From a virus, in UHGV virus genome UHGV-1298062: a DNA stretch of 14,957 nt; one strand, written 5' to 3'. A model generated the notes under the pieces. It searched no databases, was not told where the DNA came from, and worked only from the letters and a program-made list of their open reading frames with translations. How positions within the stretch are numbered: the first letter of the stretch is position 1; each line of letters starts with the position of its first letter. Shown in pieces: positions 87 through 14,957 of this stretch. Position numbers and translations under genes: made by a program.

Positions 87-854
87 ATGGACGATTTATC
101 GGTATACGCGAGATCATTGGATAAGGCTAAATACTATGTTTACTGTCTCTATGATACAGAAGACAAGATGAAAAGACCGTTTTACATAGGAAAAGGCAAA
201 TCGACTCGTTGTCTCGATCACATCAAGTATCCCGATGACTCTCCCAAATCCATGCGGATCAAAGAACTTTTGGCTAATAAAAAATTAGGCATAGATATTC
301 TTCGTCATGGTATGGATGAAACCACAGCCAAACTTGTTGAGGCGACATGCATCGACCTTATGGGGGTCGGAGAGCTTACGAATAAGGTACGAGGAAGTGG
401 TTCCATGATGGGCAGAATATCACTGGACGCCTACCATCACTTAGTGCTGCAAGAGGAAACTGAAATTGCTCCTGAGCACGCCGGTCTTGCCTTCCTGCTA
501 AACAGCACCTACAAGTCAGGAATGTCCGCTCTGGCATTATATGAAGCTACGCGTGGCGTATGGGCAAAGGTTCCAAGAGACGAGAATCTCAAATATGCCT
601 ACGCTACATATGGGGGCCTGATAATGGAAGTTTATCAGATTGAATGCTGGGTCAAAGCCGGTTCTCAGCAGTACTTTACAAGGGATATAGCTCTTGGCCC
701 CGACACAAAACGTTATGAATTTGTTGGCAGAATAGCCGATGAGCATATCAGAAAACTGTATGTAGGCAAATTAATCAAGAAGCCACCAAGCTACGGCAGC
801 CCTTTTGTGAAGGTTGGGGTGGTTAGGAATGAACATAGTGTTAGCGCGGCATAA
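87..854 (+). CDS. GIY-YIG-like nuclease domain protein with uncharacterised C-terminal domain
   Basis: ATG at 87 with AAGAG 8 nt upstream; 255 codons. N-terminal ~95 aa shows a GIY-YIG-like pattern (YVYCLYD ... FYIGKGK ... R..DH, then candidate catalytic E and N further on). C-terminal ~150 aa has no motif I can assign. Followed by the hairpin terminator at 870-908. Confidence 0.6.
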   Translation: MDDLSVYARSLDKAKYYVYCLYDTEDKMKRPFYIGKGKSTRCLDHIKYPDDSPKSMRIKELLANKKLGIDILRHGMDETTAKLVEATCIDLMGVGELTNKVRGSGSMMGRISLDAYHHLVLQEETEIAPEHAGLAFLLNSTYKSGMSALALYEATRGVWAKVPRDENLKYAYATYGGLIMEVYQIECWVKAGSQQYFTRDIALGPDTKRYEFVGRIADEHIRKLYVGKLIKKPPSYGSPFVKVGVVRNEHSVSAA

Positions 855-869
855 AGCTGACACTGTACT

Positions 870-908
870 TATGCATTGGCGCGTACATTGCGCCAATGCA
901 TAATTTTT
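870..908. terminator. Rho-independent terminator hairpin between convergent genes
   Basis: Perfect 13-bp inverted repeat tatgcattggcgc / gcgccaatgcata (870-882 and 890-902) with 7-nt loop, followed on the + strand by ATTTTT (903-908). Lies between the gene ending at 854 (+) and the gene ending at 907 (-). The T-tract is only on the + side, so it mainly terminates the + strand gene. Confidence 0.55.
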
Positions 909-1266
909 AACCTTTCTTCATCAACTCTCGTTTGATTTCATCGGTACGCATCGTGACATCGGCAGCTGTGATCGCCTCGTTAAGTTTCACGATGTCCTCG
1001 ATTTCCTGCGGTGACTTCTCTGCCAGATGGAAAATGGCTGCGCGAATCACGTCAGAACGGGTGAACTTCTCGAAACGAGGGATGAACTTCATCATTTCCA
1101 GCAGTTCGAAGTATTCGTCCTCCAGTGACATTGTGCGGCTTTTAATTTTCTCTTTGCCACGAGTCGGGCGTCCCTGTGGTCTGACTGGTTGGCGCAAAGG
1201 AGTTGTGTTCTTGGCCGGTGCATCAGGCTCTTTGCGCTTTGCTAGGTCACCCATTTTCATGGACAT
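907..1266 (-). CDS. small partner protein of the ParA-like ATPase (ParG/ParB-like, putative DNA-binding adaptor)
   Basis: ATG at 1266 overlaps the stop of the upstream ATPase gene (TAATG), implying translational coupling. 119 aa with a basic, Pro-rich N-terminal tail and a C-terminal region consistent with strand-helix-helix. Assignment is by position and size relative to a small ParA, not by a diagnostic motif. Confidence 0.5.
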   Translation of the reverse strand: MSMKMGDLAKRKEPDAPAKNTTPLRQPVRPQGRPTRGKEKIKSRTMSLEDEYFELLEMMKFIPRFEKFTRSDVIRAAIFHLAEKSPQEIEDIVKLNEAITAADVTMRTDEIKRELMKKG

Positions 1267-1934
1267 TATTCTTCTTCCTCCAGACTCAACAGATAATCTA
1301 CAAATTCTTCAAACTCGGCTTCCGCCTTTTTGTCGCGCTCGCTACCGGTCATTTCAAAGATAGAACGACCAGACTCTTCCGCATCATCATAGACGTTGCG
1401 GTTATATAAATTGACTGGCGCAGACTCGATGCCAAACGTCTCGACAATCTCTTTAGCCGCCAAAATGCGAGACACTTGTGATGGCAAAGCCGGGCACTGG
1501 TTCATGACCGCGCGGACCTTCACTTTATCGTTTACATTACGAACATTGTCGATAATAGGATCGATGTCACGCAGAGATTTCAAATCACGACGCTTAGGAC
1601 GAAGCGGGATAATGATAACGTCGGCCATCAGCATCGCTTGTCGCTGAATTTCGGAGTCAAAGCCACCAGCATCTACCACTACAAACTCAGCTCTACCCTG
1701 AAGCGATTTTAGGTGCTTAATGATGTCATCCTGAACGTATGCAAAAGGAATCAGCTCAAGGTCTTCGTTCTGTCGACGGTCTTCACACCAGCTTGTTGTC
1801 GTGCGCTGAATATCTATATCAGTGATATAAACCTTCTTCTTCTTTTTGACTTTCAGGCAAACGGCAATTTGCTGGGCAACAGTGGATTTGCCAGGCCCGC
1901 CCTTTGTGCCGCCAACCACAAAGATCTTGGTCAT
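1266..1934 (-). CDS. ParA/Soj-family ATPase (small, deviant Walker A; type Ib partition-like)
   Basis: ATG at 1934 with GGGAA 7 nt upstream; 222 aa. Deviant Walker A KGGPGKST near the N-terminus (VVGGTKGGPGKST). Its length and lack of an N-terminal HTH extension are typical of ParF-like small ParA proteins. Confidence 0.8.
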   Translation of the reverse strand: MTKIFVVGGTKGGPGKSTVAQQIAVCLKVKKKKKVYITDIDIQRTTTSWCEDRRQNEDLELIPFAYVQDDIIKHLKSLQGRAEFVVVDAGGFDSEIQRQAMLMADVIIIPLRPKRRDLKSLRDIDPIIDNVRNVNDKVKVRAVMNQCPALPSQVSRILAAKEIVETFGIESAPVNLYNRNVYDDAEESGRSIFEMTGSERDKKAEAEFEEFVDYLLSLEEEE

Positions 1935-2113: not shown

Positions 2114-2132
2114 GTACGGTAAATTGCCGTAC
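2114..2132. promoter_or_regulatory. inverted repeat GTACGG-N7-CCGTAC just downstream of the candidate -10 (possible operator)
   Basis: Perfect 6-bp arms at 2114-2119 and 2127-2132, placed around the inferred transcription start of the candidate promoter. Confidence 0.3.
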
Positions 2133-2214
2133 ACAATTTGATGACACATACGCAATGGGCTATAGCCCAGTTAAATAACCTTTGAGTCGAAAACTCAGTT
2201 TAAATAGAGAGCAA

Positions 2215-2243
2215 TGATGGCCTTCCTACATCACCGGCCATCA
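2215..2243. promoter_or_regulatory. inverted repeat TGATGGCC-N13-GGCCATCA adjacent to the antitoxin ribosome-binding site (candidate operator)
   Basis: Perfect 8-bp arms at 2215-2222 and 2236-2243, ending 10 nt before the antitoxin ATG at 2254 and overlapping the GGGGG Shine-Dalgarno region. Type II TA operons are usually autoregulated through palindromes at this position. Confidence 0.4.
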
Positions 2244-2253
2244 GGGGGTACAC

Positions 2254-2523
2254 ATGTCCGCACTGAAAAAGCAGCGCATCGATTTGAGATTAACCGATGA
2301 CGATAAAAGCATCATCGAGGAAGCTGCCGCAATGTCTAACCAGAGCATTACCCAGTTCATGGTTAGCAGTGCATCCGAACGTGCCGTGAAGGTGATAGAG
2401 CAACACCGTAGACTGGTTCTAAGTGAAGAGTCCTGGAATCTGGTTATGGATGCTATAAGCAATCCTCCGGCACCGAACGACAAGCTGAAACGAGCTGCCA
2501 ATCGTCTGAAAAGCATGGAGTAA
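2254..2523 (+). CDS. DUF1778-type ribbon-helix-helix antitoxin (AtaR/TacA/KacA family)
   Basis: ATG 2254 with GGGGG 5 nt upstream; 89 aa. The sequence (MSALKKQRIDLRLTDDDKSIIEEAAA...QFMVSSASERA...) matches my recollection of antitoxins paired with GNAT toxins. Only 8 nt separate it from the toxin gene. Confidence 0.82.
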   Translation: MSALKKQRIDLRLTDDDKSIIEEAAAMSNQSITQFMVSSASERAVKVIEQHRRLVLSEESWNLVMDAISNPPAPNDKLKRAANRLKSME

Positions 2524-2530
2524 TTTACTC

Positions 2531-3052
2531 GTGAGCAATACGACGATCGAGATTTTCTCTGGAGAGAACGATTATGATCTAAACGGTTTTGATTGCGGCG
2601 AAGAGTCACTAAACGCATTTTTGACCAACCACTTAAAAAGACAGCATGAAGGAAAAATTCTTCGCGCTTATGTGCTTTGCACTAAAGAAGAAATACCAAA
2701 GGTATTAGGTTATTACACTTTGTCAGGCAGCTGCTTTGAGAAAGAAACCTTACCTTCAAAGAGTCAGCAAAAGAAAGTGCCTTATCGGCATGTCCCAAGT
2801 ATCACTTTAGGCAGACTGGCTTTGGACAAATCTCTTCAAGGTCAGGGGCTTGGCTCAATGCTTGTAACTCACGCAATGCGTGTTGTGTACAATGCATCTC
2901 TTGCGGTAGGCATTCATGGGCTTTTCGTTGAGGCGTTGAACGATAAAGCCAGAGCGTTTTATAAAAGTTTGGGCTTTATCCAGCTGGTTGGTAACAACGA
3001 TCGTTCTTTGTTCTATCCAACAAAATCTATCGAAAAATTGTTCGAAGAATAA
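2531..3052 (+). CDS. GNAT-family acetyltransferase toxin (AtaT/TacT/KacT-like, tRNA-acetylating type)
   Basis: GTG 2531 is the only in-frame start, with GGAG 10 nt upstream; 173 aa. GNAT signature including the acetyl-CoA-binding block LQGQGLGSMLV. Conserved blocks (FDCGEE.LN.FL, ILRAY.LC, LGYYTL.GSCFE, PS.TLGRLA.D.SLQGQG, GIHGLFVEALN.KA..FYKSLGF) match tRNA-acetylating toxins as I recall them. Confidence 0.82.
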   Translation: MSNTTIEIFSGENDYDLNGFDCGEESLNAFLTNHLKRQHEGKILRAYVLCTKEEIPKVLGYYTLSGSCFEKETLPSKSQQKKVPYRHVPSITLGRLALDKSLQGQGLGSMLVTHAMRVVYNASLAVGIHGLFVEALNDKARAFYKSLGFIQLVGNNDRSLFYPTKSIEKLFEE

Positions 3053-3084
3053 TGTGTCCCCCTCATTTGAGGGGAACTTCGACA

Positions 3085-3288
3085 TCACCAACCGCAAACT
3101 CTCTCTCCCATCGTATTGTGAAAAAGGATTTGGCGTTCGGTTTCTTCGGTCATTACATCGTCATTGCTGATATAAATAGGTTCAGCGCCATCGCAGAACA
3201 ACACGCTGGTGGTCTGTGGCTTAATTGCGCACCCACTTATCATGCAGCTCACGATGAATGGCAGAAGCATCTTTCTGACGTATTTCAC
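3085..3288 (-). CDS. outer-membrane lipoprotein, o-spanin (Rz1)-like, overlapping the 3' end of the upstream gene
   Basis: 67 aa from GTG 3288 (alternative ATG at 3270). n-region MKYVRK, hydrophobic core, lipobox ISGC with Ala at +2 (outer-membrane sorting under Lol rules). Overlaps gene 3221-3472 by 68 nt in another frame. Not proline-rich, unlike lambda Rz1. Confidence 0.5.
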   Translation of the reverse strand: MKYVRKMLLPFIVSCMISGCAIKPQTTSVLFCDGAEPIYISNDDVMTEETERQILFHNTMGERVCGW

Positions 3289-3472
3289 TGTTCATCTCAT
3301 TCACCACTTCCACTGTGCTTTGAAGACGCTTGTTATCTTCCCGCCGTTCTTTCTCTTCCATACTGCGTCTGGCCATATACCCGCCATAGGAGTATGCGCC
3401 GACAAGGACTAGAATGACGGCGGCCAGAGTGAACAAAGCGGATTTCATTTTGAACAACAGGCCGTCGAACAT
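3221..3472 (-). CDS. small inner-membrane protein with N-terminal TM helix and charged coiled-coil tail (i-spanin/Rz-like, unusually short)
   Basis: ATG 3472 lies 2 nt after the stop of the upstream gene; 83 aa. Hydrophobic segment SALFTLAAVILVLVGAYSYGG, then a highly charged helical tail (RRSMEEKERREDNKRLQ...). Confidence 0.55.
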   Translation of the reverse strand: MFDGLLFKMKSALFTLAAVILVLVGAYSYGGYMARRSMEEKERREDNKRLQSTVEVVNEMNSEIRQKDASAIHRELHDKWVRN

Positions 3473-3474
3473 AC

Positions 3475-4167
3475 TTACACTAATCCTTTCTGGTGCTTGC
3501 GAACCTGGGACCAGGCAATGAATGCTGCCACAAGAATGGTAGCTACGCCAAAGATGATGCGTACCGTATCTCCACTGGAGATATTGCCTTGCGCTTTATC
3601 CATTGCGGCAGAAACTTGAGGCATAACGTCAGCAATTTGTGCAAGGCCAATACCTGCAGTGACTGTAGCACCTGTGGTTTCTTTTGTTACAGGAACGGCT
3701 TTTACAGCCTTTACCGGTTTGACAATGCCGGCACGTCGCAGACCTTCTTCGATAAGTTCTGGTGTATACCAGCTATTGGGGGTTTTCAGCGGACCTCGGC
3801 CATTTTCATGTCTAATGATCGCCTCTACCAGCGGTCTTAAGGTCTCGTAGTCATGCAGATCGATAATCATATCTGGTGCTACTCCAACGGCTTTGGATAC
3901 CTCGTTCACATAAGCCAAAGTGTTGTTCTCATGTGGAGGCGCCCAGCGTTCGATGACTTCGCGGATCGTATCAATGCTGGAGCCATCTTTTGCGCGGCGC
4001 TTGTCGTGGTAAGTAATGAGTGTCACTGCCAAAGCCCGAATCCCCCACACGGGGTCTTTGAACGTGCAGAAACGCGGTTCTGAAGAGTTGTTGACTAAGC
4101 CCTGCCACGGCGCTCCTTTATCAAGATTACCGGGGTTGTTATTACGAATGCCTCTCGGAGTTTTCAT
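3475..4167 (-). CDS. tail-anchored membrane protein with unassigned N-terminal domain (RNNNPGN block) and C-terminal TM helix
   Basis: Preferred start ATG 4167 (AGGAG 7 nt upstream); the ORF extends to an ATG at 4194. 230 aa, no N-terminal signal peptide. N-terminal ~150 aa globular domain (GIRNNNPGNL...W.G..., HENGRG), Lys/Val/Thr-rich linker, C-terminal hydrophobic helix IIFGVATILVAAFIAWSQV followed by RKHQK. Confidence 0.7.
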   Translation of the reverse strand: MKTPRGIRNNNPGNLDKGAPWQGLVNNSSEPRFCTFKDPVWGIRALAVTLITYHDKRRAKDGSSIDTIREVIERWAPPHENNTLAYVNEVSKAVGVAPDMIIDLHDYETLRPLVEAIIRHENGRGPLKTPNSWYTPELIEEGLRRAGIVKPVKAVKAVPVTKETTGATVTAGIGLAQIADVMPQVSAAMDKAQGNISSGDTVRIIFGVATILVAAFIAWSQVRKHQKGLV

Positions 4168-4180
4168 CCTTGATCTCCTG

Positions 4181-4504
4181 TTATTGCAATCCATTTTTTA
4201 CGCCATACGCGGCCAATCCTAAAAGCAGTACGGTAATAATGAACGACGTTATTTTCGAAACAATGCCGCCAAAGAACCCACTGGAGATGGTGTCGAGCCG
4301 GTTAAGAAGTTTGTCCAGATTGGAGTGCTGAATGCTGTGTTGTGCGGGCGTCATATCGCCAAAGTAGGTTTTGAGCTGGTCATTGACCTCCTGACCAATT
4401 TCCTCGCGTATTTCTTTACCTAATTTGCCTACGACTTCCCGAGCAACGATTGAGGCGATGCGCTCAACCTGTTCAGTTGTGACTCCCGCCATCTCGTTCG
4501 ACAT
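4181..4504 (-). CDS. small tail-anchored membrane protein (charged soluble N-terminal region, single C-terminal TM helix); holin-like or regulatory
   Basis: Preferred start ATG 4504 (GGAGGA 5 nt upstream); the ORF extends to an ATG at 4516. 107 aa; C-terminal helix ITSFIITVLLLGLAAYGV. A 13-nt gap containing the next gene's RBS separates it from 3475-4167. Confidence 0.65.
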   Translation of the reverse strand: MSNEMAGVTTEQVERIASIVAREVVGKLGKEIREEIGQEVNDQLKTYFGDMTPAQHSIQHSNLDKLLNRLDTISSGFFGGIVSKITSFIITVLLLGLAAYGVKNGLQ

Positions 4505-4540
4505 GTTTTCCTCCATGAAAAGTCAAATCGGGATGGCGTG

Positions 4541-4549
4541 TTTATATCA
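4541..4549 (-). promoter_or_regulatory. candidate extended -10 element (TGATATAAA) for the membrane-module operon
   Basis: Minus strand reads TGATATAAA (complement of 4541-4549), about 25-35 nt upstream of the first in-frame ATGs of gene 4181-4504. No convincing -35 hexamer. Confidence 0.35.
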
Positions 4550-4564
4550 TATTTTAACCATTTG

Positions 4565-4588
4565 TAGTAGGTATGTACTTACCTACTA
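4565..4588. promoter_or_regulatory. perfect palindrome tagtaggta-N6-tacctacta upstream of the membrane-module operon (candidate activator or repressor site)
   Basis: 9-bp arms at 4565-4573 and 4580-4588 with 6-nt spacer tgtact. Centre lies about 42 bp upstream of the start site inferred from the extended -10. The core is shared with motifs at 7978-7997 and 14787-14802. Confidence 0.4.
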
Positions 4589-4637
4589 TATATCTTGCAA
4601 ACTAATCGTTGTTAATAATGCAGATATAATCTGCCCC

Positions 4638-5219
4638 TTACTCTGCTGGTATTGTTGGCCAGTCAATATCCGGTGCCGTTGATGTGTCAATGCGGTTCAA
4701 TAAAACTCTATACTTCTTCCATGCAGTCAGCAACGATGCTTCTTCCTCCGTTGCAATCTCCAAATCTACAGCATCCTGAAGTGGCGCAATGTGCTCGCTG
4801 GCTACCTGCATCAGACTTTTTTTTGTTTCTTCCGCTTCCCGTACCTGAAACAATTTTTCTGTTTCCTCATCCTTCTCCCAGGATGTGCCGTCCCACTTCT
4901 GATATTCCCCATCCGGTGATAACCAGGTGACATTTTCCGGTAATGGCCCAAGTTCAGAAATAAACAACGCGTCCCCTGATTCCACGTCATAGACCGTTTT
5001 ACCCCTGTGGTCTTCAACGAGACTCCATGATTTATTTTCGCTGTTGAATACGGCCACGAAGCCTGCCGGAATATCTGGCGGTGCAATATCGGTACTGTTT
5101 GCTGGCAGACCTGTATAAGGCGGAATATATGCGTCACCTTCACCAATAAATTCATTAGTTCCGGCCAGCAGATTATAAATTTTTATGGTCCGTGGTTGTT
5201 CACTCATTCTGAATGCCAT
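4638..5219 (-). CDS. tfa: tail fibre assembly protein Tfa (lambda Tfa-like)
   Basis: 193 aa. Matches phage lambda Tfa along its whole length as I recall it ([34 protein letters not shown]...[14 protein letters not shown]). ATG 5219 overlaps the stf stop (TAATG). Confidence 0.9.
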
Positions 5220-7933
5220 TATGCAAGCCTCACAATATAGTTAAATGCGATGTTTTTGACGGTGTTTTCCGCGTTACCAGCAGCGTTAACGGTGATGGTG
5301 TGTCCATGTGAACCAATCGCAACGGAGTGCGTATGAGCACCAATACCGACAGTATGTGTGTGTGCACCTGCGCTTGCAGCAGTACCCGATACAGAGTGCG
5401 TATGAGCGCCTGCAGAAGAAGTGTTAACACTGTATTTAGAATAATCAGGTGATCCACTTCCCGGAGCACCACTGGAACCACCTGAAACAAATGTCATCGA
5501 ATGGGTATGTGCACCGGCTGAAGCAGCCGTACCGCTAACACTATGGGTATGCGCACCAGTGTTATTCGTGGATTTAGTGCCGTAATCAAACGACGATGTG
5601 GTTTTCGTCCCCAAATCCGTACTGGATGCGCTGGCGCTGTGGGTGTGCGATTTAATGCCGTCCTGTTCCTGAGACAATACGGCACGACCACTGGCGGGCT
5701 TGCCCTTAATCGTCCAGCCACGCATATCAGGGATCACGCCTGACGGATACGCAACCGCAAGCAGGGGATAGGCTGCCTTATCAAAAGCCTGCCCCTGCAT
5801 AATGGCATAGCCTGTAGGTACTGAATCAGAAGGCCACGGAATCGCCGCACCTACCGGAAATGAATCCTGCGGCGTCCAAGGTGTCCAGCCACCCGTTGAA
5901 TACTGGCTGCGGGTATAGCTTCTGGATGTGTTATACACATAGTAAATTTGTGTTATTCCGGCATTTTTAAGCACAACCAGAGTGCCCGCAAGGTTCTCCG
6001 GGTATTTCAGCGATGCGCTTGCATTCGCATTCAGTGGCTGATGGTACAGCCCCGGCGTTTTGTAATTATCCAGATTCTGGTTTGCACCAATCTCAATACT
6101 CTGACTGTTAAAAATATCCTGCGATGTAACATTGACATCATTGGTCAGTGGTTTGCCATTGACCTTACGCTCGCCAGGAACGCGCCCGTTTGCATTATCA
6201 TTAGCTGCTTTCACTGCTTTCGGTGTCGCGGCAAACGTTTCAGATGCGCTGTTGGTTGCACTACTGAGCTGGACAATTCCTTTTTGTGCTGTCGTAGCGT
6301 CCTGAGCAGTATATTTCCCGTTAGCAAGGTCATAGGCTGCCTTTACCGACTTTGGCGTTGCCGCCAGCATTTCAGATGTGCTGTTGGTCGCGTTGCTAAG
6401 CTGAACTATCCCTTTCTGTGCTGTCGTTGCATCCTGTGCGGTGTATTTCCCGTTAGCCAGGTCATACGCGGCCTTAACGGCTTTTGGTGTTGCCGCCAGT
6501 GACTCGGAAGTACTGTTGGTCTCACTGCTAAGTTGTACTATTCCCTTATTCGTCGTGCTTGCATCCTCAAGCGCCACGGCGGATGCAATATCCTCTGCCC
6601 GTTTTGCCGCTGTCTCAGAGCGTGTTGCCGCGGATTCTGCCGCATTTTTGCTCTGCGCAGCCGCCGTCGCACTGTCTGCCGCTTCCGTCGCCTTCGTTGA
6701 TGCCGTTGTCGCACTCTCTGCTGCCGCTGACGCCTGGCGAGCGGCCTCATCTTTTGAAGATGACGCCGAGGAAGCTGAAACAGAGGCAGAGCTTGCAGAT
6801 TCGGCTGCTGTCTCCTTAGAAGCAGCGGCATTGTCTTCTGAAGTCTTTGCATTGGTTTCAGAAGATTTTGCCGCCTCTGCTGACTTTTCCGCAGCTGTTG
6901 CCTGTTCCGTCGCCTCTGTCGCTTTAGCGGTGGTATTTGCCGCAGATAACGAAGCGCTTTCCGCAGACTTTTCTGCCGACGTTGCACTTGATGAAGCACT
7001 ATCCGCGCTTATTGAGGCCGCGCTCGCTGACGTTTCTGCCGCAGATTTAGAACTGTTTGCAGACAATGCACTCTGTTCGGCAGCAGCTTCAGACGCTTTT
7101 GCGTTTGTCTCTGATGCTTTTGCTGCCTTACATGAATTTGCAGCTTCTGTAGCTGATGATGCTGCCGCGTTTGCACTCGATGAAGCGTTAGTCTCTGATA
7201 ATTTAGCCGCATCCTTAGATGCAGAGGCACTGGACGCTGATGTGGCTGCCTCCGATGCTTTAGTCGACGCCACAGATGCTGATTTTGCTGCCGCTTCTTT
7301 TGCCGCTTCTGCGTTTGTTTCAGATTTTTCCGCAGCAGCTGCACTCTCACTCGCCGCACTTTGTGAAGATACCGCAGCGGATGCACTTTGAGATGCCTGA
7401 GAGGCTTTTTCTACAGCAGTGTTGGCACTTTCTGCCGCAGCGACAGCACTGGCCGCCGCCTCCCGAGCTTTGTCTCCAGCGGCCTCAATCGCATCGGTGT
7501 TATTTTTATACCACTCAACGTTTTCGTTATGCTCGTTGACGATCTGCATTAGCGGCTTAACGGTCACTTCTGTACCGTCTTCACGCTCGATTGTCACATC
7601 ATCCAGAGCGGTCAACCAACTGCGCATGGACTTGGAATCAGCCGACATACGCGACATTAGTGCAGTAAAGCGCGCACTAAACTGAGTTAAGTCGCCTTCA
7701 TAGGTCGTAATGATTCGGCACGGAACTTTAGATTGAGTTTCGCCGGTATAAGGTTCTGAGAGGACAATGACCGTATCACTGGTTACGCGCTTGACCTCAT
7801 ACAACTTATTGTCAGGACCAATGACAATCATGCCCGGTAACACGCCGTTTTCGGTCAAATTCCAACGTGTTCCGATGCCTGATATTGTGTCGCTTCCTTT
7901 TGTAAATGTAACAGTACCTTCCCTGTACCACAT
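5219..7933 (-). CDS. stf: side tail fibre protein Stf (lambda Stf-like C-terminal part, different N-terminal domain)
   Basis: Preferred start ATG 7933 (AAGGAG 11 nt upstream); the ORF extends to GTG 7975. 904 aa. Ala/Ser-rich low-complexity shaft, three tandem tail-fibre repeats ([42 protein letters not shown]), C-terminal block matching lambda Stf ([45 protein letters not shown]) with HxH repeats. Confidence 0.9.
6190..6570 (-). repeat. about 2.8 tandem copies of a 132-bp in-frame repeat inside stf (phage tail-fibre repeat)
   Basis: Period seen directly: gtatatttcccgttagcaagg at 6309 and gtgtatttcccgttagccagg at 6441 (132 bp apart). Encodes the repeated KGIVQLSS...[19 protein letters not shown] unit. 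Boundaries approximate. Confidence 0.6.
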
Positions 7934-7953
7934 GTTCTTTTTCACTCCTTGAA

Positions 7954-7975
7954 GTGTGGGCGTCCTTGCCCACAC
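7954..7975 (-). other. GC-rich hairpin in the stf leader (8-bp stem gtgtgggc/gcccacac, 6-nt loop)
   Basis: Perfect inverted repeat at 7954-7961 and 7968-7975, 20 nt upstream of the stf AAGGAG RBS. No U-tract follows on the mRNA strand, so it is not a classical terminator. Confidence 0.4.
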
Positions 7976-8068: not shown

Positions 8069-11000
8069 TTAACTGATGCCCGACATGGAAAATGCGCCAC
8101 TTCCACGGCTGATTAGCATCACGGGCGAATAAATATGTGTCTGTGATGAACTGGTCACTTTTACCGTAACAGCAACAGTTCTTGAGGTAACATTGTTAAA
8201 AGCAGCGTAAAGAGTGCCACCGACGCCTGTAGATCTTGTTGAATTAAGATCAGGGTCTCTGTATGTTGCCCCCTTACCAGTGGCTGCGGTCTTCGTCACT
8301 CCATTGCAGGTAAATTGTGCTGCAACAGGGCCGACGCCCCCCGTATATACATTTATTGCCACATAAATATTTTTGGGCAATGCAGACGAAGAAGAGTCTG
8401 TATATGTCATTGTATATGTGCCGCTGTTACGAACTGAGAAGTCATTGCCCACATACATGTTAGCGACATCGCCTACGAAGTGATCTGCTTGTACCGTGCC
8501 TCTGAATGTTCCGCTGGTAGCCTGTATTTCTCCTGTGAATTTGCCATTCGTTGCGTAAACGGTGCCTCTAACAGTTACATTGTTAAACTCTGAGTTCCCG
8601 TTTTTATTAATATGCCACCCCGTCATCCCGCTTGAGTAATCGTTGGACTGAATGAAGTTGCCTATTTTGGCGTTATCAATGGTGCCGTTCTTGATATAAG
8701 CTCCGTTCATATAAGCCACACCGGCATCAATAACGAATGGCGTTGTAATTTTCCCATTAACGGAGTTCACCAAACCAAAGCGATCTGCCTGCACCAAAAA
8801 CTGCGATAGACCTGTTGTGTCGATGCCCAACGCTATGCCGGCAACATATTTTTGGCCTCCGCTGGTGGAGGTTTCCATTTTCAGCGTCCAGGCTGTTGAT
8901 ACCTTCTTGTTCGTATCAGCAATAGCTGTGGCCTGTTGTTGAATTGTTGCTGTATTTCCATCTACTGATGCTTTTAAGGTGTCAACTCTCCCACTTAGTG
9001 CATTGTCGGCGCTTGTACGCGTAGTCGCTTCAGATGTAATCGCAGCATGAATATCTTTGCTCGTTTGAGCCTGTAGATTAGTGATATTAGAAGCCAAAGC
9101 GGAATCAGCATCAGTTCTGGCTTTCGTCTCTTCAGCTACAGCCGCCTTAATATCCTTGCCCGTTTGACTCTTCAATGTAGTTATCTGTTGTGCCAAAGAT
9201 TCGTCGGCAGTTGCTCGGGCGTTTTTTTCTTCAGATATAGCGGCACTAATATCGCCTTCAACTTTGGCTTGTAACGATAGGACTTCTTTTGAAAGTGCTT
9301 CATCGGCACTGGCTCGCGCCTCTTGTTCACTCACAATTGCGGCAGAAATGTCATCGTTAATCTTTGATTCAAGTTTGGTGATTCTGCTTCCAATAGCATT
9401 ATCCGCATCTACACGAGCCGTAGTCTCTTCAGTGATTGAAGCTCTGATATCCTCATTTATTTCAGCTCTAATCTCTTCCATTTTCGTAGCCATTGCGGAC
9501 ATATCATCTGCAAAAGCCTTCTGAGTTGTGGCGATCCTGGCATTGCTCACCATCTGTTTGTGCTGGTCTTCATCCTGACGCAAAGCTAAATCGATGTTTG
9601 TTTTAGCCAATGCCTCAATGTTTGTCGTCACTTCGGCACTGGAGTGCTCGACTTCAGCCACGGTTTTTTTCATCTCTTCAATGGTGGCCAAACTGCTATC
9701 TACAGTTGACTTCATTGCCTCGATTTCTTTCGCGTTCGCCAAGTCGCCTTCGACTCGTGCCTCACGTTCCTCCGCAACTAAAGCCGATGAATTGTCCAGT
9801 GCTGCATTCGCGGCCTCAACCGCTCCAGCAACGACCTTGTCCTGCTCTGAAACAGTTTCCTTCAACTGAATTAATGCGGCATTTGAGTTTTCAACCTCCT
9901 TAAGAGCCTCTTCCACCTTGCTGACAGTATTAGAAACTTCCGTTCTAAGAACGTTTTGGGCTTCTTCAATCCGTTGATCGGTCTCAGTAAATTTGTCATC
10001 AAGGCTTTTCAGGCTTTCTTCCATCTGCTTGTTGATTGCGTCGACGGCTTCCTGCGAGGCTTTGGTGTCGATTTCCTCAAGCAGTTCCTGCCCCAATTCC
10101 GAAGAAGTGATCTTCCCGGTCAGGAAAGACAGAACATCTTTCGTCATCGCCTCAGTGCCCAAATTGGAGTTGGGCTGGCTCAACATTCCGCGTTTGTTTG
10201 CTGCACGAACCCAATAGAACCAAGTTTCGCTATCTCCAAGACCTGCGTGCGTAAAGGTGGTACTGGCTGCTTCGGCAATTAGTTTTGCAGTATCCAGGTT
10301 GTTGGTCCGGGATGCATACACGTTGATGTGATCGAGGTCGATTGAGTCCGGGTTAACCCAATTCAGAATCACATTGCGGTAGTCGCCCACGGCCGTCAGT
10401 GCAGTCGGTGCATCCGGCGGCGTCATCGTCCCCTGAACTTTGTAGACGGTGCTGATAATTTCTGTTTTTTTACCGTTGAATGAAACCGCATACAGTTGGA
10501 AGTCGTAGCGTCCATTCTCCGCGACATTAACGATTTCGTATTGCTCTTCGGTTACACGCGCCGATTGCCAGTTCGATACATTGTTTGCATCAGAACGTCG
10601 CCAACTGATCCAATACTCTGGAGATTTCCCTTCCCATGTTGCAGTCAGTTTTACTGACAGGTTGCCCGGGCTTGAGAGATAAGTCCCTTCAGTGATTTGC
10701 AAATTAGACGGCTTGGAGTAAGTCGGGTCCAATACCGTCGTATTCTGCGGGATAAGCGTTGCACCATTGTCGATCGCCTCATATTTAGACGGATTGTTTT
10801 CAACAGCGGTGATGTCAAAGCTACCCGACGTTTCCCCCTGAGCGATGTTAACGATGCGAACGCGCATAGGTTCGAGATCTGGTTCTGTAATTGTCCAGAC
10901 ACCGTTCAAAACAGGCGTTTCCGCTGACGACAGGGCTTTTGAAAACGTAACTTTTGTTATATTTTCGCCAGTTTCAAGAACATCGCGTTCAACGATTTTG

Positions 11001-12643
11001 CCTTCCTGATTCAGTATTCGAATAAAGCAGCCGCCTTTGGCTAACGACACAGGCGCATCGAGTGTGACGCTGTTTTTAGTAAACGCCACAATTCGACCTG
11101 AGTTACGTTTGCCTGCGCGATATTTGTTCTGAATCAGAACGGTTTCACCAGGCATCAAAAATGACGCGTCTAAGCCGGCAGTAAATGTAATTACATCCGA
11201 CTCCATTCTGGCGGTATATAAAAGCCACAAACCAACTCGGTGAGCCTGCCCTCGGCTTGTACAGCCAAATGCTACGACTTCTGTCTTACGCTCACCATAA
11301 CGGCGCATTGCGTCCTGATCTTCAACGTACTCGATGTTTTGCTTATAACCGTCCTCCTTGTTGTTGTAGGTTACGAGCGCAACGGATGGGCGATCTTTAC
11401 GCGCAGAACCTTTATAGGTAAACAATCCATCTTTGACGTTAGAGTTGGTAAACATCATTACCGGATCTGATGGGCTATCCTGCATGATGTTAACCATCCC
11501 ACCAGCCCAAAACACCATGCCGCGGAATGCTCCAGCAATATCCTGAATTAGCCGGTATGCGTCCTGTCGACTGGTGATCTGCGTATTGATTGCAAAGCGT
11601 TTCTCTTTGCCACCAAAGCCATCATCGACCTCTTCGTCACAATATCGACCAATCTGGTACAACTGGCCAAGGTCAATCATAGATTCCGACACATACTGAC
11701 CAAGGCCATATCGAGCATTGGTCAGCAAATCAAAGAGAATCCACGCAGGGTTTGAAGAAGACAACAGCTTAAAAGTACCGTCCCATACGCCGACATAAGT
11801 ATTGGTGTATTCGTTGTAGTTTGACGGTACTCGGATTTTTATACCGCGCACCAAATACGAACGGGAAGGCATTGTGCTACCAAACTGCTCTGAATTGACC
11901 TTCAAGCCAACAAGAGCAGAGTTAGGGTAGTTCATTGGCGTGTCGACAATTTCCCCGATGGAATCCACCCATGTATCGTTATAGAGATACTGAGTTTTGC
12001 TGTCGTCGGTTAGACGTATGACACGAACCTTATATGCACGGCCAGGTTTCGGCAGTTTGAGTTCATAGCTGCGGTAGTAAACACCTGTCTTCTTCGCTGT
12101 CAGTGCAATTTCAACGTCTTTCTCACCTTCAGCAACGACATCGGCAAATGTTCCATCGCCATTGGCAATCTGGAACTTGTATTTGACTGTTGTACCGTTG
12201 GTGTCGCCGGATTTCTTATCCACGGAACGTAGAGAGGGGAATTTGAGAATGAGTCGAACGCGGTCAGCTTCATCGTTATCGATGGAGACCGTGACATCAT
12301 GCGTCTTTTTCAACTGAATGTTGATGGACTTCGGCGTCTCGACGAAATCAAAACCGGCCATAGGCGTCTGATCTTGCGAACCATCGCGAAAATCCCATGT
12401 AATACCGCTGTAGTTTGCAGAGCCGTCTTCATTGAGGATCGGCAGGTCGTCGATAAAAATCGACTTTGCTCCGTCGACAAGACCGCCAATAACGCCTTCC
12501 CCGAGCAAGTCGAGGATGGACGCCATAGCACGCGAGTTAACGGTATCATCGGCTTCAACCGGCGTGCGGCTGGAGCTGCTGCTTTTCTTGCCGCCTGCAC
12601 CTGCGATCAGGAGAGGCAGTCTTTTCTTCTTGAACTGTTCCAT
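8069..12643 (-). CDS. J: tail tip host-specificity protein J (lambda gpJ family) with central coiled-coil insertion and divergent C-terminal domain
   Basis: Preferred start ATG 12643 (AAGGA 10 nt upstream); the ORF extends to TTG 12649. 1524 aa versus about 1130 aa for lambda J. Conserved gpJ blocks present (GKKSSSSSRTP N-terminus, VWDGTFK, AFGCTSRGQAHR.GLWL, YVAGI.LG....LSQFLV). Roughly 330 aa of coiled-coil repeats inserted in the middle; last ~140 aa unlike the lambda J C-terminus. Confidence 0.92.
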   Translation of the reverse strand: MEQFKKKRLPLLIAGAGGKKSSSSSRTPVEADDTVNSRAMASILDLLGEGVIGGLVDGAKSIFIDDLPILNEDGSANYSGITWDFRDGSQDQTPMAGFDFVETPKSINIQLKKTHDVTVSIDNDEADRVRLILKFPSLRSVDKKSGDTNGTTVKYKFQIANGDGTFADVVAEGEKDVEIALTAKKTGVYYRSYELKLPKPGRAYKVRVIRLTDDSKTQYLYNDTWVDSIGEIVDTPMNYPNSALVGLKVNSEQFGSTMPSRSYLVRGIKIRVPSNYNEYTNTYVGVWDGTFKLLSSSNPAWILFDLLTNARYGLGQYVSESMIDLGQLYQIGRYCDEEVDDGFGGKEKRFAINTQITSRQDAYRLIQDIAGAFRGMVFWAGGMVNIMQDSPSDPVMMFTNSNVKDGLFTYKGSARKDRPSVALVTYNNKEDGYKQNIEYVEDQDAMRRYGERKTEVVAFGCTSRGQAHRVGLWLLYTARMESDVITFTAGLDASFLMPGETVLIQNKYRAGKRNSGRIVAFTKNSVTLDAPVSLAKGGCFIRILNQEGKIVERDVLETGENITKVTFSKALSSAETPVLNGVWTITEPDLEPMRVRIVNIAQGETSGSFDITAVENNPSKYEAIDNGATLIPQNTTVLDPTYSKPSNLQITEGTYLSSPGNLSVKLTATWEGKSPEYWISWRRSDANNVSNWQSARVTEEQYEIVNVAENGRYDFQLYAVSFNGKKTEIISTVYKVQGTMTPPDAPTALTAVGDYRNVILNWVNPDSIDLDHINVYASRTNNLDTAKLIAEAASTTFTHAGLGDSETWFYWVRAANKRGMLSQPNSNLGTEAMTKDVLSFLTGKITSSELGQELLEEIDTKASQEAVDAINKQMEESLKSLDDKFTETDQRIEEAQNVLRTEVSNTVSKVEEALKEVENSNAALIQLKETVSEQDKVVAGAVEAANAALDNSSALVAEEREARVEGDLANAKEIEAMKSTVDSSLATIEEMKKTVAEVEHSSAEVTTNIEALAKTNIDLALRQDEDQHKQMVSNARIATTQKAFADDMSAMATKMEEIRAEINEDIRASITEETTARVDADNAIGSRITKLESKINDDISAAIVSEQEARASADEALSKEVLSLQAKVEGDISAAISEEKNARATADESLAQQITTLKSQTGKDIKAAVAEETKARTDADSALASNITNLQAQTSKDIHAAITSEATTRTSADNALSGRVDTLKASVDGNTATIQQQATAIADTNKKVSTAWTLKMETSTSGGQKYVAGIALGIDTTGLSQFLVQADRFGLVNSVNGKITTPFVIDAGVAYMNGAYIKNGTIDNAKIGNFIQSNDYSSGMTGWHINKNGNSEFNNVTVRGTVYATNGKFTGEIQATSGTFRGTVQADHFVGDVANMYVGNDFSVRNSGTYTMTYTDSSSSALPKNIYVAINVYTGGVGPVAAQFTCNGVTKTAATGKGATYRDPDLNSTRSTGVGGTLYAAFNNVTSRTVAVTVKVTSSSQTHIYSPVMLISRGSGAFSMSGIS
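8975..9470 (-). repeat. five tandem 99-bp in-frame repeats inside J (33-aa coiled-coil units)
   Basis: Repeat landmarks at about 9051, 9150, 9249, 9348 and 9447 give a 99-bp period. Encodes five units of the form DI.AAI..E...R..AD.AL...I..L. Copies are diverged; boundaries approximate. Confidence 0.55.
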
Positions 12644-12659
12644 GTTCAAAAAATCCTTA

Positions 12660-14774: not shown

Positions 14775-14902
14775 ACAATGATAGTAAATTAGTACTTACT
14801 TATCCAGGTACTTAAGCCTCAAATACTTGTCTGAATGTAGCAGTTAAGACACAGTACCCCTGATATCGCTTAGACTGGCCCCCTGAATCTCCAGACAACC
14901 AA

Positions 14903-14922
14903 TATCACTTAAATAAGTGATA
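14903..14922. promoter_or_regulatory. 20-bp palindrome TATCACTTA-AA-TAAGTGATA (candidate dimeric DNA-binding protein site)
   Basis: Perfect 9-bp arms with 2-nt spacer in the non-coding region upstream of L. Half-site TATCAC equals the first six bases of the lambda operator consensus half-site, but the spacing differs from 17-bp lambda operators. Confidence 0.35.
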
Positions 14923-14957
14923 GTCTTAATACTAGTTTTTAGACTAGTCATTGGAGA

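Follow-up and report, generated by a model that had tools for sequence, protein, structure and literature searches.

Endolysins with a membrane anchor at the tail end are unusual, yet such a family has already been described and crystallized; papers from 2020 to 2022 reported the family together with its structure, activity, and odd architecture. One member is the ORF39 endolysin of Enc34 (PDB 7Q47; Cernooka et al. 2022, PMC8943055), a virulent, chi-related Hafnia siphophage of ~60 kb. The catalytic domain of ORF39 lyses outer-membrane-permeabilized Escherichia coli, Pseudomonas, and Hafnia, and the full-length protein is toxic whereas the truncated form is not (PMC8943055). The catalytic role belongs to Glu131, with Trp79 and Tyr95 in the groove, and the core helices and the catalytic Glu, Tyr, and aromatic residues superimpose on those of the GH73 and GH23 lysozyme-fold glycosidases TM0633, FlgJ, phiKZ gp144, and MltC (PMC8943055). 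The arrangement of a catalytic domain followed by a C-terminal transmembrane domain (TMD) was called limited to Chivirus and its relatives (PMC8943055).

A second member, M4Lys of Salmonella phage BSPM4, is by itself able to lyse E. coli; azide does not block this lysis, its timing is concentration dependent, the TMD is required, loss of 13 C-terminal residues abolishes it, and the TMD alone is bacteriostatic (PMC7143992). LC-MS identified N-acetylglucosaminidase products (Bai et al. 2020, PMC7143992). The endolysin of phage SPN19 is 97 to 99% identical to M4Lys (PMC7143992). An analogous layout is found in LysAP of Acidovorax phage AP1, in which the catalytic domain precedes a lysis-essential C-terminal TMD and the full-length protein alone is toxic (PMC8879335). 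Our literature search found no work on the endolysin or lysis of SSU5-type phages, and later Enc34 papers added nothing on the TMD mechanism. Here, we analyze a gene in a 14,957-nucleotide stretch (the window) of virus genome UHGV-1298062. The gene very probably encodes the lysis-cassette endolysin of an SSU5-like E. coli phage-plasmid, a member of the Enc34 ORF39/M4Lys family.

RESULTS

Gene and start codon. The coding sequence occupies positions 3475 to 4167 on the minus strand, running from an ATG at 4167 to a stop codon at 3475 to 3477, and specifies 230 aa plus stop: a PHA02564-type catalytic domain followed by a C-terminal membrane module. We assign it to the Enc34/M4Lys type on the basis of the open reading frame and its matches to 7Q47, PHROG 873, and the SSU5 and Cyrano proteins. 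Its length of 693 nt is the same in the PGAP, Cyrano, and SSU5 annotations. A Shine-Dalgarno sequence, AGGAG (4175 to 4179, minus strand), lies 7 nt upstream of the ATG and is kept in Cyrano and SSU5. The gene limits given in an earlier reading of the sequence alone are confirmed. The program-made listing gives a longer form of 239 aa from an ATG at 4194; we rejected this as a dual start, since this ATG, which would add MDCNNRRSR, falls within the final codons of the gene before it (...K N G L Q stop) and has no Shine-Dalgarno sequence, and a 1-nt indel puts it out of frame in phage SSU5.

Homology. A word-indexed search returned 1,451 homologues at an E value of ≤1e-3, and an exhaustive search returned 8,579 representative clusters at 50% identity, numbers far above what a chance reading frame would give. 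The protein matched the Enc34 catalytic domain 7Q47 at E = 6e-56 (phmmer), and the family profile matched the same structure at E = 1.7e-70. The match to PHROG 873, "endolysin" (3e-86), spans aa 8 to 232 of the 239-aa listed translation and thus covers the C-terminal module too, and in the homologue alignment as well, homology reaches through the C terminus. The SSU5 "putative endolysin" is 90% identical to the protein, and the SPN19 endolysin is 54% identical over 99% of the length. Membership in PHA02564 is likely by homology to proteins that the authors of PMC7143992 place there. Pfam gave no significant match to the full protein, the C-terminal 80 aa, or the catalytic domain alone, and none at all to the last even at E ≤ 10; its lone signal was SLATT_1, which matched the TM helix but stayed below threshold. 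NCBIfam gave no match to the protein. None of the classical families (GH24, GH19, GH25, GH23/SLT, GH73, amidase_2/3, peptidase M15, and CHAP/NlpC-P60) produced a profile match in Pfam or NCBIfam. The sequence-only reading had been unable to place the domain among lysozymes, amidases, M15 peptidases, or transglycosylases by motif; the two databases agree, and the lack of a Pfam or NCBIfam model accounts for that difficulty.

Catalytic domain and predicted active site. Residues 1 to 150 (3718 to 4167, minus strand) form the predicted enzymatically active domain, with an all-helical fold resembling the lysozyme alpha lobe. Three blocks that had looked conserved in the single sequence, GIRNNNPGNL (aa 6 to 15), FCTFKDPVWGIRA (aa 33 to 45), and IIRHENGRG (aa 117 to 125), stand at the positions given, and their conservation is genuine across 36 homologues with identities down to 53%, among which G6, R8, N11 to N14, W21 to G23, F33, F36, G42, R44, A45, and E121 are invariant. 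Mapping by a phmmer alignment to 7Q47, with a chain offset of +1 allowed for, pairs E121 (codon GAA, 3805 to 3807) with Enc34 Glu131, W75 (3943 to 3945) with Trp79, and Y86 (3910 to 3912; all minus strand) with Tyr95. The equivalents of these three residues are invariant among the 36 homologues; in the broader set of 103 representatives, E121 and Y86 are each present in 102, and all have an aromatic residue at position 75. E121, the predicted catalytic acid, is the invariant candidate for catalysis. Enc34 differs in having an extra 7 residues after the WAPP motif and 6 after HENG. By analogy with Enc34, Glu121 would act as the general acid and Trp75 and Tyr86 would hold the glycan in the groove. 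The RNNNPGN loop and the W-Q-G block belong to the conserved region. Bond specificity is uncertain: structural relatives span lytic transglycosylases and glucosaminidases (PMC8943055, PMC7143992), and for M4Lys, the data point to products of a glucosaminidase together with some of endopeptidase type (PMC7143992).

A cysteine/histidine pair had also been suggested as catalytic, which would make the protein a thiol hydrolase of a new kind. The only cysteine, C34, does lie within a conserved block, and His120 adjoins the conserved ENG. However, C34 is present in just 26 of 103 representatives (Ala in 27, Val in 17), and even close full-length homologues have Ala instead; H120 is kept in 84 of 103 and gives way to Phe or Gln in 12 or more, H54 is mostly Gln in the family, and H79 and H105 are variable. 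On these conservation data, we reject the pair; with a fold that is the helical, lysozyme-like one of Enc34 and its catalytic Glu, a thiol mechanism is extremely improbable.

C-terminal membrane module. The expectation of a globular N-terminal enzymatic domain with a C-terminal TM anchor was borne out by the homology to 7Q47 and by a hydrophobic segment at aa 204 to 222. The module begins with a cationic linker, PVKAVKAVPVTKE (aa 151 to 163; 3679 to 3717), identified by charge count; the segment of aa 141 to 163 carries a net charge of +4, and the family mean there is +2.2. Helix 1 (aa 164 to 189; 3601 to 3678) is weakly hydrophobic by composition and by Kyte-Doolittle (about 1.0; family mean, 0.92) and Eisenberg values (<H> about 0.45, muH about 0.2); 54% of it is Gly, Ala, Ser, or Thr, as in a SAR-like or amphipathic helix, and it includes Q177, D179, P183, and Q184. 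Helix 2, IIFGVATILVAAFIAWSQV (aa 204 to 222; 3502 to 3558), is a bona fide TM helix (Kyte-Doolittle, 2.15) that ends 8 residues short of the C terminus, and its small-residue face is conserved, with G207, A214, A218, and Q221 in invariant or near-invariant columns. It is followed by the tail RKHQKGLV (aa 223 to 230; 3478 to 3501), which has a net charge of +3; all four segments are on the minus strand. Of the 113 full-length representatives, 100 have a C-terminal TMD of this kind and a tail charge of about +2.6, and the tail is more positive than the N-terminal flank in 94% of representatives; the charge pattern of the family is +2.2 in the linker, -0.5 in the loop, and +2.0 in the tail. The full-length AF2 model does not give packing or topology with confidence, pLDDT being 38 to 68 in the C-terminal helices and below 50 across aa 154 to 199.

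No PHROG or Pfam holin family matched the C-terminal module, and BLASTP found no significant similarity to the S21 pinholin (E = 0.19). The two-helix architecture, with a SAR-like first helix, and the charge pattern are compatible with a class II or pinholin-like holin. The protein is not a SAR endolysin of the N-terminal kind: the first 30 residues contain no hydrophobic window and are occupied instead by the RNNNPGN block.

Lysis cassette. The genes run in the order tail fiber assembly gene, 111-aa TMD protein, endolysin, Rz, Rz1, and terminator-like hairpin. The 111-aa protein (4181 to 4516, minus strand), a putative holin or lysis regulator, matches phrog_5093, of unknown function, and its Cyrano and SSU5 counterparts are labeled "Holin" or "putative holin"; about 80 aa at its N terminus form an acidic domain, and its only TMD (aa 85 to 103) is C-terminal. 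Met codons 1, 5, and 9 lie near its start, and initiation at Met5 (4504) would give 107 aa. Downstream, an 83-aa Rz-like i-spanin (3221 to 3472; phrog_1026, 8e-22; N-terminal TMD at aa 6 to 24) is overlapped at its 3' end by the gene for an Rz1-like o-spanin lipoprotein (3085 to 3288; phrog_1275, 1e-25; lipobox ISGC), a P2-like overlapped arrangement, both on the minus strand. Just downstream of Rz1 is a GC-rich, terminator-like hairpin (3056 to 3077, minus strand), found by a consensus scan only; it separates the cassette from a convergent toxin-antitoxin pair.

Cyrano and SSU5 carry the same lysis genes with the same annotation, and the cassette DNA is 80 to 83% identical to theirs; pEC21Z137-115K is 99.8% identical across 14.9 kb. 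Synteny and DNA identity with SSU5, Cyrano, and E. coli IncFIB phage-plasmids thus identify an SSU5-like phage-plasmid cassette. SSU5 gp27 ("putative endolysin," a name it has had since its GenBank record) and Cyrano CYRAN_23 ("Endolysin") are orthologues in an identical gene order, with only allelic differences. Spanin genes also lie downstream of homologues in chi-like, Aeromonas, Pasteurella, Alcaligenaceae, and soil-phage loci. The upstream partners are more varied, with at least three unrelated types, and an Aeromonas phage has none there. The 111-aa partner is not shared with chi-like phages; matches to it were confined to 12 SSU5-like records. The partner in Alcaligenaceae is built in the same way as the 111-aa protein, with no significant similarity (E = 0.08).

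The gene context also bears on whether the protein might be a virion-associated peptidoglycan hydrolase used for entry (a "virion protein" or "structural protein P5") and not an endolysin used for exit. The domain does occur, N-terminally or internally, in internal virion protein D/gp16 of K1F-like podophages, in tape-measure and "tail injection transglycosylase" PHROGs, in "capsid and scaffold" proteins of Pseudomonas phages, in the phage E1004 core protein Gp29 (PDB 9VVP), and at residues 545 to 675 of a 1,259-aa representative, and the CDD family name is "virion protein" (PMC7143992). These copies (K1F-type gp16, Gp29, and tape-measure proteins) have a homologous catalytic domain (E = 1e-20 to 5e-26; 35 to 45% identity) within structural proteins of >1,000 aa that are ejected at infection, lack the C-terminal TM module, and are encoded outside lysis cassettes. 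The copy analyzed here, in contrast, is free-standing at 230 aa and has its own TM anchor; its gene is flanked by a holin-like gene and Rz/Rz1, lies downstream of the tail fiber assembly gene, and is the only endolysin candidate visible in the cassette; homologues of the same architecture lyse from within (PMC7143992). A role in the virion is therefore very improbable.

DISCUSSION

Our results point strongly to an endolysin and agree with the earlier suggestion of a candidate cell wall hydrolase whose architecture is unusual among endolysins. What we document for this protein is its homology and fold, its conserved residues, its membrane anchor, and its genomic setting; everything functional is carried over from relatives that are 54 to 60% identical. 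As M4Lys and the chi-like endolysins (SPN19, iEPS5, and Chi) share its full-length architecture and likewise end in a cationic tail beyond the TMD, the protein can reasonably be expected to behave like M4Lys, with TMD-dependent, holin- and Sec-independent lysis and N-acetylglucosaminidase products. The surroundings differ: the upstream partner gene in M4Lys/chi-like phages is from another family than the 111-aa partner, the upstream holin-like protein of Enc34 has an N-terminal TM helix and is unrelated to the partner here with its C-terminal TMD, and the element here is a ~110-kb phage-plasmid.

Late in infection, the enzyme would build up bound to the inner membrane through its C-terminal module, in which the cationic linker would lead through the weakly hydrophobic helix (aa 164 to 189) to the TM helix (aa 204 to 222) and the cationic tail. 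Access to murein would need this module, the upstream 107- or 111-aa single-TMD protein might help or time the process, and Rz/Rz1 would disrupt the outer membrane afterwards. Topology and the route across the membrane are what we infer. With about an even chance of being correct, our preferred reading puts the enzyme domain on the cytoplasmic face, as the sequence-only reading had predicted, in the form of an N-in tail anchor or an N-in/C-in hairpin, and has it cross through lesions formed at a critical concentration by the oligomerizing C-terminal module, the partner protein, or both; the C-terminal module would then be a built-in holin-like device. This reading is consistent with the lack of an N-terminal hydrophobic segment, the cationic segments flanking both ends of the two-helix unit, and the azide insensitivity, concentration-dependent timing, and bacteriostatic TMD of M4Lys.

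The opposite, N-out/C-in orientation is possible but rather unlikely. The catalytic domain would then be exported and held in the periplasm by the C-terminal TM helix, as in a "C-terminal SAR-like" endolysin, and the 107/111-aa protein, as a pinholin or releasin, would depolarize the membrane and free or activate the enzyme. The conserved cationic tail behind the sole strongly hydrophobic helix (+3 here) predicts C-in by the positive-inside rule, and helix 1, with D179, Q177, P183, and Q184, is not hydrophobic enough to count with confidence as a TM segment and perhaps does not span the membrane; together, these features favor N-out. Phobius and Phyre2 predict M4Lys to be N-out, and full-length M4Lys lyses without a holin (PMC7143992); the authors of the LysAP study read that protein as a Sec-dependent C-terminal SAR endolysin with a probable pinholin (PMC8879335), and the Enc34 authors raise the same possibility for theirs (PMC8943055). 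However, the protein here has no signal peptide, export would mean moving ~200 hydrophilic residues across the membrane posttranslationally, and according to the Enc34 authors, there is no known pathway that exports an N-terminal domain by a C-terminal signal (PMC8943055). The strongly cationic linker before helix 1 would also have to cross the membrane, and azide does not block M4Lys lysis (PMC7143992). Furthermore, the Enc34 catalytic domain is active in isolation, and the protein here has a single Cys; a form tethered in the periplasm would thus probably have no evident means of being held inactive.

SAR endolysins such as P1 Lyz and phage 21 R21, which work with pinholins, are likewise membrane tethered, can lyse without a canonical large-hole holin, and share a weakly hydrophobic, Gly/Ala/Ser/Thr-rich helix with helix 1. 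They differ in that the SAR domain is N-terminal and Sec dependent, whereas the protein here lacks an N-terminal signal and carries its hydrophobic module at the C terminus, and azide does not block lysis by its homologue M4Lys; their catalytic fold is of the GH24/T4 lysozyme type, in contrast to the Enc34 type. LysAP resembles the protein here in layout, but it has an unrelated catalytic domain of the GH24 family (E/D/T triad), and its export is reported as Sec dependent (PMC8879335). We tentatively propose, at somewhat less than even probability, that the conserved C-terminal module is a self-contained membrane-breaching device, making the family one of single-polypeptide "holin-endolysins," or that it directs Sec-independent export of the large N-terminal domain by a C-terminal signal. 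In the holin-endolysin case, the changeable small protein upstream would be a timer or antagonist and not the holin.

RefSeq plasmids name the same protein "membrane protein" or "hypothetical protein." These PGAP labels, found in many Enterobacteriaceae phage-plasmids, including pHCM2-type elements, result from the lack of a Pfam or NCBIfam model; supplying a domain model could close this gap in annotation. Among the best 150 clusters at 50% identity, about 100 show the architecture, which occurs, beyond Chivirus and its relatives, in SSU5-like phage-plasmids, in Pasteurella and Alcaligenaceae prophages, and in a soil-metagenome phage contig. With the same endolysin module and a different partner, the SSU5-type cassette offers a natural comparison system for how a signal-less, C-terminally anchored endolysin reaches murein.

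Results

The 230-aa protein encoded at 3475..4167 (-) is, as judged by homology and predicted fold, a member of the Enc34/M4Lys endolysin family. A sequence-only reading had left its RNNNPGN-containing N-terminal domain unassigned because Pfam and NCBIfam hold no model for it, and our searches of these two collections likewise gave no match to the domain. That description no longer stands, as the domain has confident matches to a well-characterized family. A phmmer search of PDB sequences returned 7Q47, the phage Enc34 endolysin catalytic domain (E=6e-56, aa 3-151); the family profile matched 7Q47 at E=1.7e-70, and PHROG 873 ("endolysin") matched at 3e-86 over aa 8-232 of the 239-aa listed open reading frame (ORF) translation, so that the C-terminal module is also covered. 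The fold prediction and structure comparison proposed in the sequence-only reading point the same way: the AlphaFold2 model was confident for aa ~30-150 (pLDDT 82-94), and the Foldseek structure search gave E=4e-16. The protein shares 54% identity with the SPN19 endolysin across 99% of its length and 90% identity with the "putative endolysin" of SSU5, a close ortholog.

Much is known about this family. The Enc34 catalytic domain lyses outer-membrane-permeabilized Escherichia coli, P. aeruginosa, and H. alvei (Cernooka et al. 2022, PMC8943055), and the full-length Enc34 endolysin is toxic, while the C-terminally truncated form is not (PMC8943055). M4Lys of the chi-like phage BSPM4, which is 97-99% identical to the SPN19 endolysin (PMC7143992), is by itself able to lyse E. 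coli, and azide does not block it (Bai et al. 2020, PMC7143992); its lytic activity is lost upon removal of the C-terminal TMD or of just the 13 C-terminal residues, and its muropeptide products are of the N-acetylglucosaminidase type (PMC7143992). The finding is therefore real but already explained, since the structure, the activity, and the peculiar C-terminal TMD of the family have all been published.

ORF calling gave a 239-aa ORF at 3475..4194 (-), within which the second ATG (4167) yields the 230-aa form, with the same coordinates as in the sequence-only reading. ATG 4167 is the correct start, since it is preceded by AGGAG at a 7-nt spacing and the resulting 693-nt gene is annotated alike by PGAP (WP_024172707.1, "membrane protein") and in phages Cyrano and SSU5. 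ATG 4194 was rejected: it lies inside the last codons (K-N-G-L-Q-stop) of the preceding gene, lacks a Shine-Dalgarno sequence, and is out of frame in phage SSU5 through a 1-nt indel.

The blocks previously singled out as conserved, GIRNNNPGNL (aa 6-15), FCTFKDPVWGIRA (aa 33-45), and IIRHENGRG (aa 117-125), proved to be so, as an alignment of 36 homologs (at least 53% identity) has many invariant positions (G6, R8, N11, P12, G13, N14, W21, Q22, G23, F33, F36, G42, R44, A45, R74, W75, A76, P77, E80, N81, Y86, H105, and E121). The suggestion that Cys and His form a catalytic pair was mistaken and is excluded by variability among 103 sequences, comprising the query and 102 representative full-length family members (50%-identity clusters): C34 is Cys in only 26 (Ala in 27, Val in 17), H120 is His in 84 (Phe in 8, Gln in 4), position 54 is mostly Gln rather than His, and H79 and H105 are variable. 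In this set E121 and Y86 are each found in 102/103 sequences, and position 75 is aromatic in all 103. The phmmer alignment equates Glu131, Trp79, and Tyr95 of Enc34 with E121, W75, and Y86 once the +1 chain offset, which was verified for each of the three, is taken into account. Structural superposition matches Enc34 Glu131 to the catalytic Glu of GH73/GH23 enzymes; Trp79 and Tyr95 are conserved residues of the groove (PMC8943055). The window enzyme is thus predicted to be a Glu-dependent glycosidase.

The earlier call of an N-terminal domain followed by a C-terminal membrane helix was sound: aa 204-222 (helix 2) form a strongly hydrophobic helix (Kyte-Doolittle [KD] 2.15; family mean, 1.85) that ends 8 residues before the C terminus. 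This helix is part of a larger module. Upstream of it lie a cationic linker (aa 141-163; charge, +4; family mean, +2.2), helix 1 (aa 164-189; KD about 1.0; family mean, 0.92), which is 54% Gly/Ala/Ser/Thr and has D179, Q177, P183, and Q184 inside it, and a loop (aa 190-203; charge, 0; family mean, -0.5); the C-terminal tail carries +3 (family mean, +2.0). An exhaustive homolog search (E<=1e-3) yielded 8579 representative clusters; among the best 150, 113 were 205-260 aa long, and in 100 of these 113 a strongly hydrophobic window ended no more than 20 residues before the C terminus and was followed by a cationic tail. Among these representatives, mean charge was +2.6 for the tail and -0.6 for the N-flank, the tail being more positive in 94%. 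Closer relatives keep the module in sequence as well as hydrophobicity (PVTKET-GAT…G-AQ-A…P…SSG--VRI--G…A--IA-SQVKKHQ-G), and one helical face carries G207, A214, A218, and Q221; this conservation and shared face suggest that the module makes specific helix-helix contacts and is not a passive anchor. The module matched no holin family and had no significant similarity to the S21 pinholin; its AF2 model was not confident.

The 14.9-kb window matches the E. coli IncFIB plasmid pEC21Z137-115K at 99.8% identity, and its lysis region is 80-83% identical to those of the phage-plasmids Escherichia phage Cyrano and Salmonella phage SSU5. The best plasmid matches all end at position 14875, the final 82 bases (14876..14957) being outside the megablast alignments. 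A ParA-type partition pair at 907..1934 (-) fits maintenance as a plasmid prophage; it consists of a ParA/MipZ-type ATPase (1266..1934, -) and a 119-aa basic protein (907..1266, -; no Pfam match), presumably its centromere-binding partner. A 255-aa protein (87..854, +) has an N-terminal LEM-3-like GIY-YIG nuclease domain (Pfam E=5.5e-7) and a C-terminal 150 aa without assignment. Lambda-like tail genes on the minus strand encode gpL, a gpK-like JAB+NlpC/P60 protein, a gpI-like protein, and gpJ, along with a tail fiber and its assembly protein. The gpJ-like tip attachment protein (8069..12649, -) is unusually long at 1526 aa, with a repetitive coiled-coil-like insert (about aa 830-1200; recurring "DI-AAI--E---R--AD-AL" units) between the FN3 region and the tail-tip fiber domain. 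In the 918-aa tail fiber protein (5219..7975, -), about aa 170-470 form a low-complexity stretch of ~300 aa that is rich in Ala, Ser, Glu, and Thr; the protein also contains three Phage_fiber_2 repeats and a collar domain, and GAHTHS (HxH) motifs recur in its C-terminal part.

The lysis cassette comprises four genes, encoding ORF111 (4181..4516, -; a partner protein with a single C-terminal TMD), the 230-aa protein, an Rz-like i-spanin (3221..3472, -), and a Rz1-like lipoprotein (3085..3288, -; lipobox ISGC) whose gene overlaps the Rz-like gene. These are annotated as Holin, Endolysin, Rz spanin, and Rz1 spanin in Cyrano; SSU5 has a putative holin, putative endolysin, and putative Rz1, with a hypothetical protein at the Rz position. 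A terminator-like GC-rich hairpin (3056..3077) separates the cassette from a convergent type II TacA antitoxin/GNAT acetyltransferase toxin pair (2254..2523 and 2531..3052, +; KacT in the Cyrano annotation). Upstream of the cassette, the tail fiber assembly gene and ORF111 are separated by 121 nt of AT-rich intergenic DNA containing a perfect 9-bp inverted repeat, TAGTAGGTA-AGTACA-TACCTACTA (4565..4588, -), which may be an operator or late-promoter control site; no sigma-70-like promoter was found in 2900..4800.

Discussion

The gene upstream of the endolysin varies by lineage, and the C-terminal module of the endolysin and the downstream spanins are constant. ORF111 (111 aa; 107 aa from Met5) has homologs in only 12 SSU5-like phage records (83-96% identity), and it is more conserved than the endolysin (93.7% versus 90% identity to SSU5). 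Its layout is atypical: Met codons occur three times near the start (MEENMSNEM), the N-terminal domain, of about 80 aa, is acidic and probably helical, and just 5 residues follow the TMD. In its place, the chi-like phages (SPN19) and a soil phage contig of 61 kb encode mutually homologous proteins (E=9e-11) that are about 115-128 aa long and have an N-proximal TMD. The corresponding product of an Alcaligenaceae prophage (99 aa) shares the layout of ORF111, a soluble N-domain followed by a C-terminal TMD, but shows no significant similarity to it (E=0.08). In a Pasteurella prophage the upstream protein (85 aa) lacks a strong TMD, and in Aeromonas phage 13AC503A no small ORF separates the tail gene from the endolysin. 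Each of these loci has spanin-like genes downstream of the endolysin. The upstream sites compared lie at 2205..2504, 1135..1488, 2114..2500, 2231..2488, and 1437..1486 of homologous loci L007, L002, L008, L006, and L003, respectively. This pattern is compatible with, and does not prove, an essential membrane function of the C-terminal module; ORF111, a putative holin by annotation, may just as well act as a timer or as a releasin-like partner for the anchored enzyme.

As to topology, we favor, at about even odds, an N-in arrangement, in which the enzyme would be tethered on the cytoplasmic face of the inner membrane and would cross through lesions opened by the oligomerizing C-terminal module and/or the partner protein. 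No N-terminal signal was found, and the two-helix unit is cationic at both ends with a neutral or acidic loop, which fits an N-in/C-in hairpin. M4Lys is insensitive to azide, lyses faster at higher expression, and has a TMD that is bacteriostatic alone (PMC7143992); moreover, no pathway is known by which a C-terminal signal would direct the export of a large N-terminal domain (PMC8943055). That the tethered domain is instead periplasmic (N-out) seems rather unlikely to us. In favor of this reading, helix 1 is so weakly hydrophobic that the protein may be single-span, in which case the cationic tail predicts C-in/N-out, and topology predictors placed M4Lys N-out (PMC7143992). A further parallel is LysAP of phage AP1, an unrelated GH24 endolysin that likewise carries a C-terminal TMD and that its authors took to be Sec-dependent and of a "C-terminal SAR" type (PMC8879335).

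By tblastn, the catalytic domain occurs in 791 phage records, 182 of which cover at least 80% of the query. It is found at the N terminus of K1F-type internal virion protein D (gp16) and of internal core/ejection proteins of other podophages, in "capsid and scaffold" proteins of Pseudomonas phages, in a tape-measure protein, in the tectivirus-like phage GC1, and in Gp29, a core protein of phage E1004 (PDB 9VVP); its PHROG matches include "tail injection transglycosylase," "tape measure," and "head protein" families. T7 gp16 has an SLT domain at the position held by the Enc34-type domain in the K1F-like podophage proteins. Given its occurrence in both large virion proteins and endolysins, one enzyme module serves both entry and exit lysins, and the window copy is clearly of the exit type, judging by its size, its membrane anchor, and where it sits in the cassette. 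Besides the missing Pfam/NCBIfam model for the catalytic domain, what remains of interest is how the Enc34/M4Lys family crosses the inner membrane.
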